Source: an uncultured bacterium (lineage in GTDB: Bacteria > Bacillota > Clostridia > Oscillospirales > CAG-272). From it: a stretch of 64,000 nt of DNA. Positions 24,525 through 40,520 of the stretch are shown piece by piece. A program made the translations under genes and the position numbers. Position 1 is the stretch's first letter. Each line of letters starts with the position of its first letter. The stretch is taken from the NCBI GenBank assembly GCA_949282345.1, contig CASDOQ010000053.1, positions 37,720 through 101,719 of the forward strand, read 5' to 3'. The notes below the pieces were generated by a model. The model saw only the letters and a program-made list of their open reading frames with translations. It was not told where the DNA came from and searched no databases.

Positions 24525-25541
24525 TCAGTCGATATCCTCGAGATACGTGTCGATCGCGGTGTCCAGCAGTTCGGGATGCAGGAGCGCGCGTTTGACGATC
24601 TTGAATGCGGAAGCGTAATAATATCCATCGCAGATCCGCTCATCCGTCACGACGCGGAGAGAAACGAAATGCCGCCGCTCCACGCTTCCGTCTTCGTTGA
24701 TCACATCCTTGGTATACTTCTTTCCATACGAAAGGAATACCGGCAGTGTACCGAAATCGTAAAGATGGTGATAAATAGGATTGATACCGAGCGAGCCCAT
24801 GCTGGTAATGATAAAGGAACCGTGGAAGGGACTGACCTTCAGCAGTTTCCGAGGTAAAAGATCGAAATAATCGAGGAAGCGCAGAAGCCCGACGGTAAAA
24901 CGCAGAAGAAGACCGGGGATACGGCGCAAAAGCCCTGCGGTCTTATCAAAATTCGTTTCCTTCGCAAATGCTTCCTTTACCGTGGCCTCAAACTTCTCAT
25001 AAACCTGCACAGCAGTATCGCGGGGATCGAACTGCACCTTGACAACGGTATCGGGAGAATCCAGCGTCATTATTTTCTTGACGGTCATGACCGCCACAAT
25101 ATCCGATCTGGAATAGATATGTTGTCCTGCAACGAATCGATTGATACCGGGGCGCTGGGCAATGGCCCGGACGTAACTCGCCAAGAACAAATGCAGGATG
25201 CCCATATTGATGTAGCCTTCCTTATGCTTTTTTTCAAGATACGCTTCGATATTCGTGATGTCGATCTCGTCCTCAAAATGATTCTGCGCATCGGAGCGCA
25301 CCTTCATGATATACGGGATCATCGCAGTCATGGCCGGCAGCGTACGGATGCGGCGGCCGTCCCGCCGGTCGCCAAAGCGGCGGCGTCTTTTCTTTTCCTT
25401 TTTCCTTTCTTCCTTTTTTTCCTCTCCTATATCCTGACCGGCTGTTTCATTTTCCATATCTTCCACGTCGATCGTCAGGGTCGCCTGCTCGCCGACGTCG
25501 GTTCCATTGATTTTCTCTGGCACGTAAAAGTCCTCTTTCAC
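24525..25541 (-). CDS. Stand-alone 2-oxoacid dehydrogenase E2-type acyltransferase-fold protein (catalytic His replaced)
   Basis: The C-terminal ~250 aa resemble the E2 catalytic domain, but the DHRxxDG block reads DERICDG. The N-terminus is a charged low-complexity segment. The GTG start at 25541 is uncertain. Confidence 0.6.
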   Translation of the reverse strand: MKEDFYVPEKINGTDVGEQATLTIDVEDMENETAGQDIGEEKKEERKKEKKRRRRFGDRRDGRRIRTLPAMTAMIPYIMKVRSDAQNHFEDEIDITNIEAYLEKKHKEGYINMGILHLFLASYVRAIAQRPGINRFVAGQHIYSRSDIVAVMTVKKIMTLDSPDTVVKVQFDPRDTAVQVYEKFEATVKEAFAKETNFDKTAGLLRRIPGLLLRFTVGLLRFLDYFDLLPRKLLKVSPFHGSFIITSMGSLGINPIYHHLYDFGTLPVFLSYGKKYTKDVINEDGSVERRHFVSLRVVTDERICDGYYYASAFKIVKRALLHPELLDTAIDTYLEDID

Positions 25542-25627: not shown

Positions 25628-27700
25628 TTAATCGGCATTTGACGCCCGGATGACCTTCTCGGCCACCGAGGAGGGAACCTCCTCATATCGGACAAAGGTG
25701 TATTCAAATCGTCCGCGCCCCTGGGTTGCAGCACGAAGCGCAATCACATAATCGGTCATTTCGGCCTGCGGCACCTCGGCAAGCACCGTCTGATACCCGG
25801 ATCGCCCTTCGGTCGGCTCGATTCCCATGACACGGCCGCGCCGTTTATTGAGATCACCTAGCACGTCCCCGACGTAGTCGTCCGGCACGCTCACGCGCAA
25901 TTCTCCGACCGGCTCCAGCAAAACGGGATTGGCCCGCGGGATTCCGTCCTTGTACGCAAGAACCGCCGCCAGTTTGAAGGAGATCTCGTTACTGTCTACC
26001 GGATGATAGGAACCGTCAAAGAGGTCTGCCGCCAGATGCACCATCGGATATCCCGCCAAAACGCCGCGCTGCATCGACTCCTGGATCCCCTTCTCGACCG
26101 CCGGGAAGAAGTTACGGGGAACCGCACCGCCGAATACGCTCTCGGTAAAGGTCAGGCCCTCCTCTTCTCCGGGAGAGAACGTGATCTTGACGTGGCCGTA
26201 CTGGCCGCTCCCGCCCGATTGTTTCTTGTGTTTTCCTTCGGCCTCCACCCGGCTGCGGATCGTCTCCCGATACGGTATCTTCCGCTCCCCGAGGGTAACA
26301 GTAAGATTAAAACGCGATTTCAGTTTGGCGGCCAACGCATCAAGATGGATGTCCCCGAGACCGAAAACGACAAGCTGGCGGGTCTCCGGGTTGTTTTCAA
26401 GCCGGAGAGTGGAATCCTCCTCAAGAAAACGGGCCAACGCCGTAGACAGTTTATCTTCCTCGCCCTTTGCGGCGCTGATCGAGCGGCCATAATAGGCGTT
26501 CGGATAAACCGTTGGCGCATAGGAAAAATCCTGCGCCCGGGTGGTGAGGGTGTCGTTTGTCCCCGTGGCATTCAGTTTGGTAATTACGCCGATGTCGCCG
26601 CAGAAAAGCGTATCGACTTCATTCTGCTTTTTTCCGCAGGGAACCAACAGCCGGCCGAACTTCTCCGTACCGCCGTTCTGCGTGTTGCGCAGGGTTGCAT
26701 CGCGGGAAAGCGTTCCCTCCATCACGCGGAAATACGACATTTTTCCGACGAAGGGATCCGCGATGGTTTTGAAGACGAAGACAGAAGTCTCGGTGCTGTC
26801 ACGGTCGATGGGAAGCGTATCTTCTTCTCCGCCCCGGACGATCTTTTCCTTCCCGCGGACGGTCGGCCGCGGGAAGGAGTCGACAATGGTATTCAGCAGG
26901 GATTTGATGCCCCACAGTTTCACGGCCGCGCCGCAAAAGACCGGGATGATCTCATTATGGATGATCCCTTCATGAATCGCCTCGACCAGCTCCTCGTGCG
27001 AGATCGTCTCTCCGGCAAAATATTTTTCCATCAAGGCTTCGCTCGTTGCGGCGGCCGCCTCGACCAGTTTTTCACGGTATTCCTCCGCCACGGGCATGAA
27101 CTGCTCGGGGATCGGCGTGCTGACGACCTCGCCGCTGTGTGAATCAAAGGTATAGACCTGCATGTCGACGAGATACAAAAAGCCGGTCACCTTATCGCCG
27201 TCGATGCAGGGGATGAGCAGAGGACACAGTTTCTTTCCGTAGCGCTCGGTCAGTTTGTCATAGGCCTTTTTGAAGCGCGCCTCCCCGTCGTCAAAGCGGT
27301 TGATGAAAAAGGTGCGCGGGATCCCGGCGGCGGTGGCGTATTCCCATGCGATATCGGTGCCGACCTCCGGCCCGTTCTTCCCGTCCACGACAATGATTGC
27401 GCTGTCGGAAACGCGAATGACCTGACGCATCTCGCCCTCAAAGTCAAAATAGCCGGGGGCGTCCAGAATATTGATCTTCACATCACGGTATTCCACCGTG
27501 GCTACGGCGGAGGAAAGCGAAAAACCGCGCCGGATCTCTTCGGGATCAAAGTCACAAACCGTATTCCCATCAGGAATTTTTCCGAGGCGGTCGGTCGTTC
27601 CGCCCAAAAACAGCATAGCTTCCGCCAGAGAAGTTTTCCCGGCTCCGCTGTGACCGAGCAGACATACGTTACGTAACATTTTGGTGGGATAGGTTTGCAT
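25628..27700 (-). CDS. Elongation factor G paralog (EF-G II-like translational GTPase)
   Basis: G1 is LLGHSGAGKTSL, G3 is DAPGYFDF and G4 is NRFD. All five EF-G domains are present (690 aa). Start at ATG 27700 behind AAAAGGAG; the ORF-track extension is rejected. Confidence 0.85.
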   Translation of the reverse strand: MQTYPTKMLRNVCLLGHSGAGKTSLAEAMLFLGGTTDRLGKIPDGNTVCDFDPEEIRRGFSLSSAVATVEYRDVKINILDAPGYFDFEGEMRQVIRVSDSAIIVVDGKNGPEVGTDIAWEYATAAGIPRTFFINRFDDGEARFKKAYDKLTERYGKKLCPLLIPCIDGDKVTGFLYLVDMQVYTFDSHSGEVVSTPIPEQFMPVAEEYREKLVEAAAATSEALMEKYFAGETISHEELVEAIHEGIIHNEIIPVFCGAAVKLWGIKSLLNTIVDSFPRPTVRGKEKIVRGGEEDTLPIDRDSTETSVFVFKTIADPFVGKMSYFRVMEGTLSRDATLRNTQNGGTEKFGRLLVPCGKKQNEVDTLFCGDIGVITKLNATGTNDTLTTRAQDFSYAPTVYPNAYYGRSISAAKGEEDKLSTALARFLEEDSTLRLENNPETRQLVVFGLGDIHLDALAAKLKSRFNLTVTLGERKIPYRETIRSRVEAEGKHKKQSGGSGQYGHVKITFSPGEEEGLTFTESVFGGAVPRNFFPAVEKGIQESMQRGVLAGYPMVHLAADLFDGSYHPVDSNEISFKLAAVLAYKDGIPRANPVLLEPVGELRVSVPDDYVGDVLGDLNKRRGRVMGIEPTEGRSGYQTVLAEVPQAEMTDYVIALRAATQGRGRFEYTFVRYEEVPSSVAEKVIRASNAD

Positions 27701-27799
27701 ACAAAGTCTCCTTTTCTGTATTTCTATGGTTTGGATGCCTGAGGCATCCCGATACCACGACAAACGGCCGGCAGCTTTTTCTGCCATCCGCATATCTAT

Positions 27800-27828
27800 A
27801 TTATACAGGAGATCTGCCTGAAATGCAA
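27800..27828 (-). promoter_or_regulatory. SigA-type promoter for EF-G paralog
   Basis: The minus strand reads TTGCAT-17 nt-TATAAT. The ~95-nt leader has GGCAG-N6-CTGCC and GGATGCC-N3-GGCATCC hairpins. Confidence 0.55.
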
Positions 27829-27845
27829 TGGGGAGATTGTAAGTT

Positions 27846-28850
27846 TTAATCAATTAACGTAGAAATATCAGACATATTTTTATTAGTTTCGAATAAAAAT
27901 TTTCCTTGATAGGTATCTCTGCGTACAAACTCTTTGTCAATAGCGTTCATGAGGGTGAATTTTTTCAGCGTGTATTGGGGAGCCACGAGCTCCGCCGGCG
28001 GAGCATCTCCCGTCACGCGGCTGATGACGATGCGGGGATCGAGGCGCTCTATCTGGCTGACGAGGATCTCGGTATAGACCTCTTTCTCAAGCGGAAGATA
28101 CTCCCCTGCTTCATAGAGACGATGGAGTTCGGTTCGACGCAAAACGTCGAGAAGATGAAATTTGATCTCATCCGGCATCAGTTTGCCGACCGTCACAGCG
28201 CTGTGTATCATGGCTGCGCGGTCTTCTCCCGGCAAGCCGTCGATCAGATGAACGGCAATGCGGACCCGGGGGGCGGAGGCACGCAACCGACCGAAAGCAG
28301 ATAGAAAATCGGCATACGTATGCCCGCGGTTGATCCTTTTTGCAGTCGCGTCCGATACACTTTGTAAACCTAACTCTACAGTCAGGTCGATTTTTTCCGA
28401 GATTTCGGCAAGGAGCGCTACCACTTCCTCCGGCAGGCAGTCGGCGCGCGTGGCAATATGAAAGGCAACGCAGTCGGGTAAGGAGAGGACTTCCCGGTAC
28501 AGGGACCGGAGACGTTCGATCGGTGCGTAGGTATTCGTGTTGGATTGCAGGTACGGGATGCAACGCGCCGTCTCCCACTTTTTCCCCATCCGTTCGCGTT
28601 GCAGGCGGAACTGCTCGGCTACCGGCAGACCGGGGAAAGTAAAATCTCCGCTTCCCCGTGCTGAGCAATAGATGCACCCGCCAACGCCGGCCCACCCGTC
28701 GATATTCGGGCAGGAAAAGCCGCCATCCAAAGGGATCTTCACGCATTTCCCCCCGTAACGGCGGCGCAGATAATAATTGTAAGTATGATACCGCTTATTG
28801 GAATCGGTGTACGGGAAGGGGTTCCGTTCAGGCTCCGTCAGTTTTTTCAT
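27846..28850 (-). CDS. Radical SAM protein, TIGR01212 family
   Basis: Contains KRYHTYNYYLRRRYGGKCVKIPLDGGFSCPNIDGWAGVGGCIYCS. Start at ATG 28850 (MKKLTEPERN). Overlaps the upstream gene by 23 nt. Confidence 0.8.
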   Translation of the reverse strand: MKKLTEPERNPFPYTDSNKRYHTYNYYLRRRYGGKCVKIPLDGGFSCPNIDGWAGVGGCIYCSARGSGDFTFPGLPVAEQFRLQRERMGKKWETARCIPYLQSNTNTYAPIERLRSLYREVLSLPDCVAFHIATRADCLPEEVVALLAEISEKIDLTVELGLQSVSDATAKRINRGHTYADFLSAFGRLRASAPRVRIAVHLIDGLPGEDRAAMIHSAVTVGKLMPDEIKFHLLDVLRRTELHRLYEAGEYLPLEKEVYTEILVSQIERLDPRIVISRVTGDAPPAELVAPQYTLKKFTLMNAIDKEFVRRDTYQGKFLFETNKNMSDISTLID

Positions 28851-34473: not shown

Positions 34474-35319
34474 ATGAAACTCGGTGAAAAGATCAAAATG
34501 CTCCGTCGTGAAAAAAAGATGACGCAAGCCGCTCTGGCCGGTGACCAGATAACGCCCAATATGCTCTGCGCCATCGAGCGGAATACGGCAAACCCATCCC
34601 TGCCGACGCTGCGCCATCTGGCGCGCGAGCTGTCGGTTCCGCTCTCTTATCTGATCGATGATGAAGAAGACAGCACCGCCTACCGGAAGCGCGAAGCCAT
34701 GCCGCGTATCAGTGCCCTGTACCGGGAAAAGCAGTTCAACGAATGCTTCCGGCTATGTGAATCCCTGCCCGGAGAACCCGACGACGAATTGGCGCTCATC
34801 CTCGCTTCCTCGGCGCTGGAGTGCGGCAGACGGGCTTTCCACCGCGGGAACATGGAAACGGCGCTGGTCTATTGCAACGAAGCGATCAACTATGCAAAAA
34901 AGACGGCCTATCCGACCGAATCGATCATCGCACAGGCCATGCTTTATGCGGCCATATGCGAAAACGTGAACGCGCCGCGACGTGACTTTCGTGAAGAGGA
35001 ATACCTCCGTGTGGCAGCAGATGCCGTAGGGCGGGAAACCCATGCCTATCTGACGGACGATGAGACCTATCCGTATCGAAACTCCCTGTTGGCCGAACAT
35101 ATTGCCGCGCGTGCCCTCATCCGAAACCGCAGATATGCAGAGGCGCTTCCGCTCCTTTTATCGGTAGAAGAAAAGAAAACCTCGCCGGAAGCCTCGGCTT
35201 ATCTCCTCTTCCGTCTTTATTCCGACCTGGAGGCCTGCCACCGCGAAGCCGGAAACTTTGAGGACGCATACCGTTACGCCTCCAAACGCATCACGCTCCT
35301 TTCCGCCTTTCAGTCCTGA
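34474..35319 (+). CDS. XRE-family HTH regulator with TPR-like C-terminal domain (RNPP-like architecture)
   Basis: N-terminal HTH_3 (LGEKIKMLRREKKMTQAALAGDQITPNMLCAIERNTANPSLPTLRHLARELSVPLSYLI), followed by ~210 aa of helical TPR-like repeats. Confidence 0.75.
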   Translation: MKLGEKIKMLRREKKMTQAALAGDQITPNMLCAIERNTANPSLPTLRHLARELSVPLSYLIDDEEDSTAYRKREAMPRISALYREKQFNECFRLCESLPGEPDDELALILASSALECGRRAFHRGNMETALVYCNEAINYAKKTAYPTESIIAQAMLYAAICENVNAPRRDFREEEYLRVAADAVGRETHAYLTDDETYPYRNSLLAEHIAARALIRNRRYAEALPLLLSVEEKKTSPEASAYLLFRLYSDLEACHREAGNFEDAYRYASKRITLLSAFQS

Positions 35320-35343
35320 GAACGCCGCCGGCGTTCTTTTTTT
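35320..35343 (+). terminator. Rho-independent terminator
   Basis: GAACGCC-GCC-GGCGTTC stem followed by TTTTTTT. Confidence 0.7.
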
Positions 35344-35428
35344 ATGCCGGATCTGCGGAAGGAATCCGCACCGAGGAAAAGCAAACGTAAAAAAGCGCGA
35401 GAAATACAGAAATACGGACGATAAAATC

Positions 35429-35457
35429 TTGACAAACCCGGATTTATATGGTATAGT
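35429..35457 (+). promoter_or_regulatory. SigA-type promoter (extended -10) of decarboxylase operon
   Basis: TTGACA-17 nt-TATAGT, with TGG preceding the -10. Confidence 0.6.
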
Positions 35458-35541
35458 GTATTCGGTGGAATTTGGGCTTTTACAGAAGCCCGGAAATTTT
35501 AGGGAAGGAGAAGATTTGCCATAGGCAAATCGTACAGCATC

Positions 35542-36984
35542 TTGGACAAGTACAAAAATCCGAAAACCGCTCTTGTGTTGCCGACGGCGGAGGACCTGAA
35601 GGCTTCGCTCTCCGGCACGGGTCTTTCGGAGGCCAGAAATAATCTCTGTGCGCTCTTTGACAAAGACACTTTCATAGAGATCGGTGCTTTCACAAAGAGA
35701 AAATTCTGCGAGTACGCAGACGTGGAACATGGCGAGGAATTTGAGGGGGTTCTCTGCGGCTACGGAGCCGTGGACGGCCGTCTCGTTTACGCTTTTGCTC
35801 AGGACGGAGCCCGCATGAAAGGCGCTATGGACGAAAACCATGCGAAGAAGATCTGCGCGCTCTATGATATGGCTTTGAAAAACGGCGCACCCGTCATAGG
35901 TCTGTTTGACTGCGCCGGAGCAGACATTTTTGAAGGAGCGGCCGCGCTGGCGGCTTACAGCCGGATCATGAAGGCGGTCTCCGCCGCTTCCGGCACCGTT
36001 CCGCAGATCGCCGTCATCACCGGCAACTGCACCGGGGCGATGGCCTCGATCGCCGCAATGTTTGACTTCACCGTCAAGGCGAGGAACGCCAACCTGTACG
36101 TGAACGCGCCCGAGTTTGCCGGCAACCGTGACTCGCAGGCACCCATCACCGCCTACGCGGCCGAAGACCGTCAGACGGCTATCGTGTACACGCGCAACCT
36201 CCTTTCTTATCTGCCCGACTGTGCCGGCGAAGGCGTACATATGGAAGGAACGGCAGATAACCTGAATCGGATGCTCGGAAACCGGGATTTTGCCGGGGAC
36301 GTCAACGCGGCGATTTCCGCCGTGGCAGATAACGGCATCTTTCTTGAAGTCTCGCATGAATACGCTCCCGTGCTGACGACCGCTTTTGCCACCGTCGGCG
36401 GGGTGAAATCCGGTTTCCTTGGAACCTCCTACGCGATCGGAGAAGGCAGACTGACGGCCGATGCCGCCCGCAAGGCCGCGCGCTTCGTTGAATTCTGCGA
36501 CGCCTTCTCGATCCCGCTCGTGACGTTGGTTGACTCGATGGGTCTTGCCGTCTGCGACGAATCCGAAAACGCCCCCTTCTCCGCCGACCTTGCCCGTCTG
36601 GCGATGGCTTATGCAAAGTCCGTCAATCCGAAGGTGACCGTCGTTCTCGGTCATGCTATCGGTGCCGCTTTCTCGCTTCTCGGATCCAAAGCGCTCGGCG
36701 CGGATATCGCGTATGCGCTCGATGAAAGTGAGATCGGCGCCCTCTCTACGGAGGTGTCGGTTGCTTTTGCCTGGAACAATCTGATCACGCCCGATAAATC
36801 CCGTGAAGATCTCATGAACGAATGGCGCGCCTCTCTCGCCTCCCCGGTCGCCGCGGCTTCCCTCGGCGAGATCGACGACATCGTAAGCGTCAACGAACTG
36901 CGTGCACGGATCTGCTCTGCCCTGCAGATGCTGGCGGTAAAGAGTTCGGTCCGTAACCGCCTCCACAACGTCAGTCCCCTGTAA
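35542..36984 (+). CDS. Carboxyltransferase, 12S/PccB/MmdA-type (acyl-CoA carboxylase beta family), divergent
   Basis: Family blocks present: GRLVYAFAQD, VPQIAVITGNCTG, RFVEFCDAFSIPLVTLVD and PKVTVVLGHAIG. The remembered catalytic blocks are altered. The start is uncertain (TTG 35542 has no SD). Confidence 0.75.
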   Translation: MDKYKNPKTALVLPTAEDLKASLSGTGLSEARNNLCALFDKDTFIEIGAFTKRKFCEYADVEHGEEFEGVLCGYGAVDGRLVYAFAQDGARMKGAMDENHAKKICALYDMALKNGAPVIGLFDCAGADIFEGAAALAAYSRIMKAVSAASGTVPQIAVITGNCTGAMASIAAMFDFTVKARNANLYVNAPEFAGNRDSQAPITAYAAEDRQTAIVYTRNLLSYLPDCAGEGVHMEGTADNLNRMLGNRDFAGDVNAAISAVADNGIFLEVSHEYAPVLTTAFATVGGVKSGFLGTSYAIGEGRLTADAARKAARFVEFCDAFSIPLVTLVDSMGLAVCDESENAPFSADLARLAMAYAKSVNPKVTVVLGHAIGAAFSLLGSKALGADIAYALDESEIGALSTEVSVAFAWNNLITPDKSREDLMNEWRASLASPVAAASLGEIDDIVSVNELRARICSALQMLAVKSSVRNRLHNVSPL

Positions 36985-36996
36985 GGAGGTGCGACC

Positions 36997-37341
36997 TTGA
37001 AACTTCCCGTTTTTCTTCTCCTGGAGATCGCGAAAGACCAGCGGGATCTCCCTTTCGTAGATGCGGTCCTTTACGGAGCCCAGATGCTTCTCATCGGGAT
37101 GCTGATCGTTTTCGCCGTTCTTTCCCTGCTCTGGCTCCTGTTGGAACTGCTCGGCTTTGTCATGCGCTCCGCCAAAACGAAGCCCGCCGTCGCACCTGCC
37201 CCGGCACCGGTTTTTGTCCCGCAAGCCCCTGCAAAGACGACCGATGACAGCGAGCTTATTGCCGTGCTGAGCGCCGCGATTGCCGCCTCGGAGTCCGCCC
37301 CTGCCACCCGCTTCCGCGTGGTGTCCTTCAAAAGAAAATAA
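36997..37341 (+). CDS. OadG/MmdD-like small membrane subunit of Na+-translocating decarboxylase
   Basis: TTG start behind AGGAGG. One TM helix (LLIGMLIVFAVLSLLWLLLELLGF), an Ala/Pro linker and a C-terminal DDSELIAVLSAAIAA block typical of this subunit. Confidence 0.65.
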   Translation: MKLPVFLLLEIAKDQRDLPFVDAVLYGAQMLLIGMLIVFAVLSLLWLLLELLGFVMRSAKTKPAVAPAPAPVFVPQAPAKTTDDSELIAVLSAAIAASESAPATRFRVVSFKRK

Positions 37342-37376
37342 AGTTGCCGCACACGCGGAGAAATGGAGAATTTAAA

Positions 37377-37766
37377 ATGAAAAAATATAATATCACTGTT
37401 AACGGTACTACTTACGAAGTCCTGGTTGAAGAAGCCGATGCCACCGGCGTTGTCGCTCCCGTAGCCCCTGTTGCTCCCGTAGCCGCACCGGCTCCCGCCG
37501 CCGCGCCCGCTCCGGCCGCTCCGAAGGCCGCCCCTGCTGCCGCGCCCGCTGGCTCTACTTCGGTGACTTCCCCGATGCCCGGCACGATTCTTGACATCAA
37601 GGTCGCCGTCGGTGCCACCGTTAAGAAGGGCGAAACGCTGTGCGTGCTCGAAGCCATGAAGATGGAAAACGACATTCCCGCTCCCTGTGACGGCAAGGTT
37701 GCCGCTGTCAATACTTCCAAGGGTTCTTCTGTTGCCGCCGGTGATATCCTCTTCTCCTTGAGCTGA
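37377..37766 (+). CDS. Biotin carboxyl carrier protein (biotinyl domain with Ala/Pro linker)
   Basis: MKKYNITVNGTTYEV..., a (VAP)n/AAPA linker and the EAMKMEN biotinylation motif. Start at ATG 37377 behind GGAGA. Confidence 0.85.
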   Translation: MKKYNITVNGTTYEVLVEEADATGVVAPVAPVAPVAAPAPAAAPAPAAPKAAPAAAPAGSTSVTSPMPGTILDIKVAVGATVKKGETLCVLEAMKMENDIPAPCDGKVAAVNTSKGSSVAAGDILFSLS

Positions 37767-37783
37767 CAGGGAGGGAACCCGGT

Positions 37784-39028
<1,245 letters not shown>

Positions 39029-39056
39029 TTATCGCTATTAAGAAAGGGAAAATACG

Positions 39057-40451
39057 ATGTCCAAAGTTCTGATTACCGAAACCGTCCTCCGCGACGCTCA
39101 CCAATCGCTTGCCGCCACCCGGATGACGACCGAACAGATGCTTCCCATCCTGGAAGCCATGGATCAGGTCGGATATTATTCGCTCGAAGCATGGGGCGGC
39201 GCAACCTTTGACTCCTGCCTCCGCTACCTGAATGAAGATCCGTGGGAACGCCTCCGCGCCATCCGGAGCCGTGTGAAAAACACCAAGCTCCAGATGCTCT
39301 TCCGCGGACAGAATATCCTCGGCTACCGTCACTATTCCGATGACGTAGTAGAATATTTCGTACAGAAATCGATCGCCAACGGGATCGACATCATCCGTAT
39401 CTTTGACGCGCTGAACGACCCCCGCAACCTTGAAACGGCCATCAAGGCAACCGTCAAGGAAGGCGGCCATGTACAGGCGGCCATCAGTTACACCACCAGC
39501 CCCGTTCACAACAACGAGTTTTTTGCCAACTATGCAAAACAACTTGAGAAAATGGGCGCAAATTCGATCTGCATCAAAGATATGGCAGGCCTTCTCAAGC
39601 CCTACGATGCCTTCCAGCTCGTCAAAGCGATCAAGTCGCGCGTCAAATTGCCGATCCAGCTCCACACGCACTACACGACCGGCCTTGCTTCCATGACGAT
39701 CCTGAAAGCCGTCGAAGCCGGCGTAGACGTGATCGACACGGCCATTTCTCCACTCGCCATGGGGACCTCTCAGATGCCTACCGAGTCGATCGTTGCAACG
39801 CTTGCCGGAACGCCCTACGACACCGGCCTTGACCTTGAAAAACTCAATACGGTATCCAAATATTTTGCCGATATCCGCGCGGAGTATCTTTCGAGCGGTC
39901 TTATCGACCCCAAAGTGCTGAAAGTCGACGTCAACGCCCTGCGCTATCAGGTCCCGGGCGGAATGCTTTCCAACCTCGTATCGCAGCTGAAAGCCGCCGG
40001 AAAACTGGATAAACTCGACGAAGTGCTTGCCGAGGTTCCGCGCGTCCGTGAAGATGCCGGATTCCCGCCGCTCGTTACGCCTACCTCCCAGATCGTCGGA
40101 ACCCAGGCCGTTATGAACGTGATTTCCGGGAGCCGCTATGCCAGCACCACCAAAGAGTTCCGCGGGCTGGTGCGCGGGGAATACGGAAAGACCCCGGCTC
40201 CTATCGATCCTTCCTTCCGAAAAAAGATCATCGGCGACCTGGCCCCGATTGACCACCGTCCCGCCGATGACCTGAAGCCCGAGATCGAATCGCTCCACGA
40301 GCGCGTGATGCCCTACGAAGAGCAGGAGGAGGACCTCCTCTCGCTGGCGCTCTTTGAAAATGTTGCCATCAAGTTCTTTGAATGGCGCAAGATGCAGCGT
40401 CACAAAATCGACCCGAACAGCGATGCGCAGAACGGAGTCCATTCCGTCTGA
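39057..40451 (+). CDS. 5S-type carboxyltransferase (oxaloacetate decarboxylase alpha / pyruvate carboxylase subunit B-like), no biotin domain
   Basis: Contains LRDAHQSL, FRGQNILGY, CIKDMAGLLKP and QLHTHYTTG, all canonical. 464 aa. Ends without a biotinyl domain. Confidence 0.9.
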   Translation: MSKVLITETVLRDAHQSLAATRMTTEQMLPILEAMDQVGYYSLEAWGGATFDSCLRYLNEDPWERLRAIRSRVKNTKLQMLFRGQNILGYRHYSDDVVEYFVQKSIANGIDIIRIFDALNDPRNLETAIKATVKEGGHVQAAISYTTSPVHNNEFFANYAKQLEKMGANSICIKDMAGLLKPYDAFQLVKAIKSRVKLPIQLHTHYTTGLASMTILKAVEAGVDVIDTAISPLAMGTSQMPTESIVATLAGTPYDTGLDLEKLNTVSKYFADIRAEYLSSGLIDPKVLKVDVNALRYQVPGGMLSNLVSQLKAAGKLDKLDEVLAEVPRVREDAGFPPLVTPTSQIVGTQAVMNVISGSRYASTTKEFRGLVRGEYGKTPAPIDPSFRKKIIGDLAPIDHRPADDLKPEIESLHERVMPYEEQEEDLLSLALFENVAIKFFEWRKMQRHKIDPNSDAQNGVHSV

Positions 40452-40484
40452 TCTCTCTGACCGATTCAAAAATCAGATCCTGCG

Positions 40485-40520
40485 GAAAGCGGCCGACCGG
40501 CCGCTTTCTTTTTCTTTTCC
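40485..40520 (+). terminator. Rho-independent terminator of decarboxylase operon
   Basis: GAAAGCGGCC-GACC-GGCCGCTTTC (10-bp stem) followed by TTTTTCTTTT. Confidence 0.75.

Follow-up and report, generated by a model that had tools for sequence, protein, structure and literature searches.

A conserved five-gene operon of gut Clostridia that probably encodes a membrane-bound biotin enzyme with a transcarboxylase-like build and a sodium pump

Biotin-dependent sodium pumps and transcarboxylases are textbook examples of two separate enzyme types. In a 64-kb stretch of DNA from an uncultured gut Clostridia bacterium, called the window here, an operon of five forward-strand genes (35542-40451) appears to join features of both. 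These genes encode, in order, a 12S/PccB-type carboxyltransferase (g1), a membrane anchor (g2), a biotin carrier (g3), a Na+-translocating carboxybiotin decarboxylase (g4), and an OadA/5S-type carboxyltransferase (g5). Our preferred reading, which we hold to be reasonably probable, is that their products form a five-subunit membrane-bound biotin enzyme with the build of a transcarboxylase and the pump of a sodium-translocating decarboxylase, in which the 12S-like protein is an obligatory core. All related loci checked, in uncultured gut and rumen Clostridia and in Lachnospiraceae, conserve this hybrid subunit set of 12S-like, 5S/OadA, 1.3S-like, pump, and anchor proteins, with three pump-less loci counted apart.

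Searches with Pfam and NCBIfam profiles bore out the families that a preliminary description of this DNA had assigned to the five genes, including its observation that two different carboxyltransferases stand beside one carrier and one pump. The anchor g2 matches OAD_gamma (PF04277, 68.9 bits, cut-off 27) and TIGR01195 (46.8 bits, cut-off 36), and scores 28.9 bits against the MmdD model NF047902, below the cut-off of 150. The carrier g3 has a Biotin_lipoyl domain (PF00364, 74 bits) with the biotinylation motif EAMKME and a long Ala/Pro linker, and aligns end to end with the MmdC model NF047903 at 122.8 bits, again below the cut-off (200). The pump g4 scores 523 bits with OAD_beta (PF03977) and 486.8 bits with TIGR01109, against a cut-off of 190.6. 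For g5, the model of oxaloacetate decarboxylase subunit alpha (NF008985) gives 755.4 bits against a cut-off of 718, and the 5S equivalog NF008984 gives 569.3 bits, below its cut-off of 827, so that the OadA model is the better fit. The g5 protein carries HMGL-like and PYC_OADA domains, with LRDAHQS, KDMAG, and HTHYTTG in its translation, and covers positions 1-442 of the 582 in the oadA model, missing the C-terminal 140. The sole biotin carrier in the neighbourhood is g3. Judged by these profiles, g2-g5 is a complete split-subunit oxaloacetate decarboxylase, to which Na+ transport is assigned by family membership.

Two short segments of the small subunits are also conserved. The N-terminal peptide of g3, MKKYNITVNGTTYEVLVEE, follows the consensus MKKYN(I/V)TVNG-x-x-YEV-x-VEE; its 19 residues are almost constant in 15 loci, Lachnospiraceae included, and it appears to be better conserved than the biotinyl domain. 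The C-terminal tail of g2, RFRVVSFKRK, is likewise conserved and is found also in L011 and L038, two of the loci without a pump. An insertion after about residue 75-115 makes the length of the pump subunit variable (414 aa in the window, 383 in Dorea; compare L007, 12247-13650, and L069, 9262-10776), and in some loci the match is interrupted by about 175-300 nt.

The distribution of the operon argues that g1 belongs to this system. Related loci with enough DNA to be judged number 41, drawn from genomes and metagenomes, and all 41 have the order g1-g2-g3-g4-g5, down to a g1 identity of 32%. They comprise 12 loci of uncultured Eubacteriales/Clostridia from human, goat, and deer gut, in which g1 is 52-91% identical and the five genes stand in identical order; 11 loci with the same layout and a g1 identity of 32-36%, ten of them from Lachnospiraceae (Dorea ammoniilytica among these) and one from an unclassified bacterium; and 18 metagenomic loci with a g1 identity of 42-55%, each with at least 4.6 kb downstream and all with g4 and g5. 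Shorter metagenome contigs agree with the five-gene layout as far as their sequence reaches. In three further loci, one from a genome and two from metagenomes (L011, L037, and L038), only g4 is missing. The preliminary description had thought the layout unusual; it is instead the norm for the clade, and pump-less relatives have already been discussed in the literature. On the strength of this constant gene order, g1 is to be regarded as an obligatory partner of the decarboxylase.

The pump-less variants (L011, 10001-13615; L037; L038, 68-3513) belong to the same g1 subfamily as the window, with a g1 identity of about 54%. The anchors of L011 and L038 still have a membrane helix and an RVVSF(K/R)R tail, and L037 has a g2-like match. 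The anchor of the Lachnospiraceae, exemplified by Dorea ammoniilytica (L020, 11449-12231), is 260 aa long; its first 150 or so residues form a lipoprotein-like domain ahead of the OadG-like membrane helix and tail.

The same gene order bears on a different explanation, in which two independent systems lie side by side, g1-g4 forming one decarboxylase and g5 being separately transcribed and served by another biotin protein. Nothing was found in its favour. The gap between g4 and g5 is 28 nt, and the signal scan revealed no promoter-like or terminator-like site in it; g5 lies directly 3′ of g4 in 41 of 41 complete loci and directly 3′ of g3 in the pump-less ones; no related locus examined that had room for g5 lacks it; and g5 itself is devoid of a biotin domain, with g3 the only carrier nearby. 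We therefore consider separate systems highly improbable.

The remaining questions concern g1. Its family is Carboxyl_trans (PF01039, 248 bits, cut-off 22), its closest solved sequences are PccB-type subunits (E = 1e-66, about 30% identity), and its best NCBIfam model is mmdA (TIGR01117), at 279.2 bits against a cut-off of 998.8. The AlphaFold model of g1, which drew on 58 sequences (mean pLDDT 87), superposes in Foldseek on 12S, PccB, and AccD5 with TM scores of 0.85-0.89, the best being 12S (1ON3, TM 0.89), and from this model g1 is confidently predicted to keep the 12S fold of two crotonase-fold domains.

The clade to which g1 belongs by sequence is very large and consists of short, divergent transferases. 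A word-indexed search with g1 returned 4784 proteins at E <= 1e-10, and the best 120 of these are all 53-91% identical to it and about 480 aa long; the few that are named include three entries called 'hypothetical protein [Clostridia bacterium]' and one acetyl-CoA carboxylase carboxyltransferase component. In an exhaustive search of 50%-identity representatives, a continuum of proteins of 440-500 aa extends from 55% to 31% identity, and proteins with canonical motifs surface only at about 33-36%. The score with the mmdA model drops stepwise, from 805 bits in a canonical archaeal enzyme (L018) through 715, 686, and 562 bits in representatives P0212, P0193, and P0176, 419 bits in the g1 of Dorea (L020), and 340 bits in P0125 to 279 bits in the window. 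The preliminary description had looked to a phylogeny to place g1; in a neighbour-joining tree, computed without bootstrap, the OadA-linked transferases do cluster apart from the canonical PccB/MmdA group.

Sequence comparison bears out the divergence that the preliminary description saw in g1. Alignment with Methylorubrum PccB, the archaeal homologue L018, and the database representatives P0212, P0233, and P0234 verified the canonical blocks DSGGARIQEG, GPCAGGAVYSPA, VDVPGFLPG, E-x-GG-x-I-x-HGAK, and RKAYGGAY, so that the consensus cited in the preliminary description was correct. In the same columns g1 reads DCAGADIFEG, GNCTGAMASIAA, VDSMGLAVC, ENAPFSADLAR, and GHAIGAAF. Every motif that had been quoted for g1 is present, and g1 deviates from the canonical consensus at every block named. 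The adenine-binding loop GGARIQEG and the pocket loop PGFLPG keep their lengths in g1, with DCAGADIFEG and MGLAVC as their residues. The first oxyanion hole of g1 is G165-A166, in which G165 is invariant and position 166 varies, Thr being commonest (55% of the family). The second is A375-A376 following the invariant G374, and matches neither the Gly-Ala pair of PccB and AccD5 nor the Gly-Gly pair of AccD4. At position 375, Ala accounts for 86% of the family, and Gly occurs in a few cases such as P0061, whose second hole is Gly-Gly-Ala. The homologues that Lachnospiraceae carry in this operon retain GGG and Arg-Leu-Gln-Glu.

For all this divergence, g1 is clearly functional, as a catalyst or otherwise. 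Between the window and the orthologous locus L004, dN/dS is 0.040 for g1, 0.19 for g2, 0.067 for g3, 0.058 for g4, and 0.023 for g5; g1 is under strong purifying selection, as strict as that on the pump, and the idea that it is a pseudogene was rejected on this value. Within the g1 family (120 members), conservation reaches at least 97% at 106 positions. Among these, the glycines that anchor the loops (G126, G165, G334, and G374) do not vary, and the acyl-pocket tyrosine Y139 is nearly invariant across the wider family alignment. Some of the departures from the canonical enzymes are themselves strongly conserved: Asp128 replaces the canonical Arg and is 98% conserved, and His371 replaces the canonical Lys.

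Seen against this conservation, g1 probably, though not certainly, retains a second carboxyl-transfer site for some acyl-CoA. The preserved loop lengths, anchor glycines, and Y139, together with the strict purifying selection, support this, as do the less divergent Lachnospiraceae homologues that share the operon and the Gly-Gly-Ala hole of P0061. According to a 2026 preprint on the long-chain acyl-CoA carboxylase of mycobacteria, the first hole is G186-G187 in AccD5 and G169-A170 in AccD4, and the second is G428-A429 in AccD5 and G405-G406 in AccD4; in that cryo-electron microscopy study AccD4 is treated as a long-chain acyl-CoA carboxyltransferase with conserved oxyanion holes. The substitutions that the preliminary description had singled out are thus found in part in a described enzyme: the Gly-Ala first hole of AccD4 is a precedent for G165-A166, and A375-A376 has none there. 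In the PccB homologue MccB, moreover, adenine and pantetheine are contacted by backbone atoms of the GGARI loop and of the glycines, and because these CoA contacts are mostly backbone the side-chain changes of g1 are not automatically disabling. The pump-less loci point the same way, since a set of g1, anchor, carrier, and g5 makes sense as a transcarboxylase and only if a second carboxyl acceptor exists, and transcarboxylase has likewise been the proposal for the comparable pump-less clusters of C. thermocellum and strain BL-4.

A lesser possibility, though one with real weight, is that g1 is a catalytically dead pseudoenzyme, retained as a structural core that bridges carrier, anchor, and OadA and so does the job of OadH or of the alpha association domain. 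Several findings favour such a scaffold and count against an active g1. Gone from g1 are the Arg and Gln of GGARIQE, PGFLPG, GG-x-I-x-HGAK, the second Gly of both oxyanion holes, and about 16 residues that include ELGGA-x-x-H; the canonical-block positions drift freely across the wider clade; and g1 is always accompanied by a fully canonical OadA. The stepwise fall in mmdA score, from 805 to 279 bits, fits the same picture. Over 666 locus pairs the divergence of g1 is about 2.5 times that of g5 (the corresponding ratio for g4 is 1.1), so that loci whose g5 proteins are 70-80% identical have g1 proteins at 46%; a canonical archaeal transferase and an alphaproteobacterial one still share 56% identity. 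Over the 21 positions of g1 mapped to substrate contacts, conservation shows no significant excess above that of the remaining protein (0.77 vs 0.71, p = 0.13), a result that fits enzyme and scaffold alike. Two other points count against our preferred reading more than for a scaffold: acyl-CoA partner genes are absent from the 64-kb window, and the pump-less loci come from metagenomic contigs, so that the pump gene could sit elsewhere in the genome. The contacts proposed below for g1 as a hub rest on analogy with the Propionibacterium transcarboxylase, and a limited literature search found no paper on a five-subunit form with a pump and no biochemical study. Against a dead g1 stand its dN/dS, the retained loop lengths, anchor glycines, and pocket Tyr, the Gly-Ala hole in a described carboxyltransferase, the less divergent homologues in the same operon, and the pump-less set, which would be left with no productive reaction.

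Whichever of these holds for its active site, g1 as an obligatory core would be part of the following scheme. By family membership, g5 would transfer the carboxyl group of oxaloacetate to biotin on the free-standing carrier g3, g4 would decarboxylate the carboxybiotin and export Na+, and g2 would anchor the complex in the membrane. Lacking an association and a biotin domain, g5 needs a tether, and g1 is therefore read as the core. Probably a hexamer, g1 would keep the 5S-type subunits at the pump by binding two conserved elements, the N-terminal peptide of g3 and the C-terminal tail of g2. In the transcarboxylase of Propionibacterium, the 1.3S subunit has an N-terminus that begins much like the g3 peptide and holds 12S and 5S together. 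The beta-gamma subcomplex of Salmonella is a beta3-gamma3 trimer, a symmetry that would suit the threefold axis of a 12S-type hexamer. Carboxyl groups from oxaloacetate might then go either to Na+ export or, in the manner of a transcarboxylase, to an acyl-CoA at the second site in g1. A more specific version, a sodium-pump-coupled transcarboxylase in which g1 acts on a short acyl-CoA such as acetyl-CoA and makes a carboxy-acyl-CoA such as malonyl-CoA independently of ATP, echoes the role given to the related pump-less cluster in a metabolic model of C. thermocellum and is put forward tentatively, as rather unlikely in that exact form.

The transcription unit itself is well delimited (Table 1). 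Open reading frames, an independent gene caller, which gave identical coordinates for the five genes on the identical contig in the European Nucleotide Archive (ENA), and a signal scan confirmed the preliminary description of five packed genes between one promoter and one terminator. The gaps between successive genes are 12, 35, 17, and 28 nt. Promoter-like sites occur at chance level across the region (three found, 2.7 expected from shuffled sequence), and a TTGAC-type -35 box with an extended -10 box stands in the same place in L004, L001, L005, and other orthologous loci. The terminator is the best terminator-like site in the scan.

Table 1. Coordinates of the operon, its leader and signals, and other features of the window
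Feature	Position	Strand	Description
Promoter, sigma-70-type	35429-35457	+	TTGACA-17 nt-TATAGT, TG extension, 11 of 12 consensus matches
Conserved 5′ leader	35458-35541	+	Motif GGTGGAATTTGG, first hairpin, Shine-Dalgarno, 8-bp hairpin, then 10 nt to TTG
Leader motif	within 35465-35493 region		GGTG(G/A)AA(T/A)TTGG, directly 3′ of the -10 box
First leader hairpin	about 35472-35493		GGGCTT/AAGCCC
Shine-Dalgarno	35503-35510		GGAAGGAG, about 31 nt ahead of the conserved TTG start of g1
8-bp hairpin	35513-35531		GATTTGCC/GGCAAATC, perfect, between Shine-Dalgarno and TTG start
g1	35542-36984	+	12S/PccB-type carboxyltransferase, 480 aa, TTG start
g2	36997-37341	+	OadG/MmdD-like single-pass membrane anchor, 114 aa
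g3	37377-37766	+	MmdC/1.3S-like biotin carrier, 129 aa
g4	37784-39028	+	OadB/MmdB-type Na+-translocating carboxybiotin decarboxylase, 414 aa
g5	39057-40451	+	OadA/5S-type carboxyltransferase without association or biotin domain, 464 aa
Intrinsic terminator	40484-40509 (to 40519 with T-rich tail)	+	11-bp stem, 7 GC pairs, T run
HTH protein gene	34474-35319		281 aa, HTH_3/HTH_19 domain and long helical C-terminal part
Terminator of HTH protein gene	35318-35338		
Antisense open reading frame over g1	35158-37224	-	688 aa
Antisense open reading frame over g5	39012-40469	-	485 aa
338-aa protein gene	24525-25541	-	Faint match only, to 2-oxoacid dehydrogenase acyltransferase catalytic domain
EF-G-family GTPase gene	25628-27853	-	Adjoins the 338-aa protein gene

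The leader between promoter and g1 has a layout common to about 30 loci with a g1 identity of at least 52% (L001-L015, L033-L045, and L060). Its 8-bp stem covaries, with three of the eight pairs changed on both sides and 96% of cells paired, a covariation score reached by none of 500 shuffles, and the leader folds with z = -3.1. L050 has an analogous hairpin of other sequence and an ATG start, and more distant loci have an ordinary ribosome-binding site. Rfam contains no family that matches the whole window at the gathering threshold or the leader at a permissive E-value. The leader may be a split ribosome-binding site or a translation-tuning device. In the first leader hairpin the sequence varies and the pairing is kept, the stem being GGACTT/AAGTCC in L004; together with the motif just downstream of the -10 box, this small hairpin may serve as an operator or belong to a structured leader.

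The operon is set among housekeeping genes, in the order radA, amidase, xerC-like, (yunB), HTH regulator, operon, ftsH, (hpt), tilS, dnaB, rplI, gdpP, with ftsH following it in convergent orientation. This chromosomal neighbourhood is kept even in loci with 56% g1 identity, and because it is conserved the core locus is taken to be inherited vertically and not as a mobile island. The HTH protein encoded directly upstream, whose position is kept at 56-66% g1 identity (L092, 9000-9842; L094, 9011-9856), is a candidate regulator of the operon. The two long antisense open reading frames over g1 and g5 were left uncalled by the independent caller and are most likely artefacts of G+C-rich coding sequence. 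Farther upstream, the genes for the 338-aa protein and the GTPase form a pair that is syntenic in L094 (901-4042).

If the pump-coupled transcarboxylase is real, the operon encodes a central enzyme, at a housekeeping locus, of abundant uncultured gut Clostridia. Should g1 be active, the carboxyl group could be switched between energy conservation and biosynthesis at no ATP cost; should it be inactive, g1 would clearly exemplify the conversion of an enzyme into a scaffold and would explain how an OadA without its accessory domains is tethered to the pump. Either answer would correct existing labels, both for pump-less clusters called oxaloacetate decarboxylase or transcarboxylase and for g1 itself, whose best model is MmdA at a score far below the cut-off.

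Each known system shares part of this subunit set. In the oxaloacetate decarboxylases of Klebsiella and Vibrio the biotin carrier is fused to the alpha subunit, whereas g3 is a separate polypeptide. The split oxaloacetate decarboxylase of Enterococcus faecalis is closer, as it works with an OadA that has no biotin domain, a separate carrier (OadD), the pump OadB, and OadH, the first three of which correspond to g5, g3, and g4. Its fourth subunit is the small OadH, whereas the window has an OadG-type anchor and a 480-aa 12S-type protein, and its genes lie in a citrate-fermentation cluster, unlike the housekeeping surroundings of the operon described here.

The methylmalonyl-CoA decarboxylases (Mmd) of Veillonella and Propionigenium invite the reading that g1 is a true MmdA and the operon a dual methylmalonyl-CoA/oxaloacetate pump for succinate-to-propionate fermentation. 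Both have a 12S-type alpha subunit, an anchor (delta), an MmdC-like carrier (gamma), and a pump beta subunit, encoded in this same order, and the best NCBIfam models are MmdA for g1, the OadG family for g2, with MmdD next, and MmdC for g3. The likeness to Veillonella drawn in the preliminary description thus stands for the gene order of g1-g4, but it is one of layout only, as g1, g2, and g3 all fall far short of the NCBIfam Mmd cut-offs (279 of 999, 29 of 150, and 123 of 200 bits) and g1 does not retain the canonical MmdA/PccB motifs. The window operon also adds an OadA-type gene, and neither the 64-kb window nor the syntenic flanks hold a mutase, epimerase, PEP carboxykinase, acc, or fab gene, only housekeeping genes. 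The description of a comparable cluster in strain BL-4 likewise reports no mutase gene in that genome. A methylmalonyl-CoA pump is accordingly quite improbable.

The methylmalonyl-CoA:pyruvate transcarboxylase of Propionibacterium likewise has 12S-type and 5S-type transferases and a small carrier in one operon, and the corresponding set of g1, g5, and g3 stands together in the 41 related loci and the three pump-less ones. The g1 model superposes best on 12S, and g3 has a conserved N-terminal peptide as the carrier there does. The analysis supports the idea, raised in the preliminary description, of a membrane-bound transcarboxylase-like assembly. The Propionibacterium enzyme is soluble and has neither pump nor anchor, whereas the window has both g2 and g4, and even the pump-less loci keep the anchor; g5 scores as OadA and not as 5S, and g1 is only about 29% identical to 12S. 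AccD4 of mycobacteria shares the Gly-Ala first oxyanion hole with g1, but has Gly-Gly in place of Ala-Ala in the second and is partnered by a biotin carboxylase instead of a pump or 5S subunit.

The nearest described relatives come from other Clostridia. In Clostridium thermocellum, the cluster Cthe_0699-0701 / Clo1313_1523-1526 includes genes for a carboxyl transferase, for the gamma subunit of a sodium pump, and for a putative oxaloacetate decarboxylase. It is annotated as oxaloacetate decarboxylase, and a metabolic model treats it as a putative transcarboxylase that makes malonyl-CoA, on the grounds that there is no standard acetyl-CoA carboxylase and that oxaloacetate decarboxylase activity reportedly went undetected; the transferase of this cluster was detected in the membrane fraction. 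In strain BL-4, CLOSBL4_v1_1895-1897 encode a 12S homologue of 33% identity together with a biotin carrier and an OadA-type protein, also proposed to be a transcarboxylase. Both clusters are likened to the window operon by their descriptions and differ in that no pump gene is listed for them; L011, L037, and L038 resemble them. The operon is a variant of known enzyme kinds, namely oxaloacetate decarboxylase, methylmalonyl-CoA decarboxylase, and transcarboxylase, whose relatives have been noticed, as yet uncharacterised, in cellulolytic and chain-elongating Clostridia.

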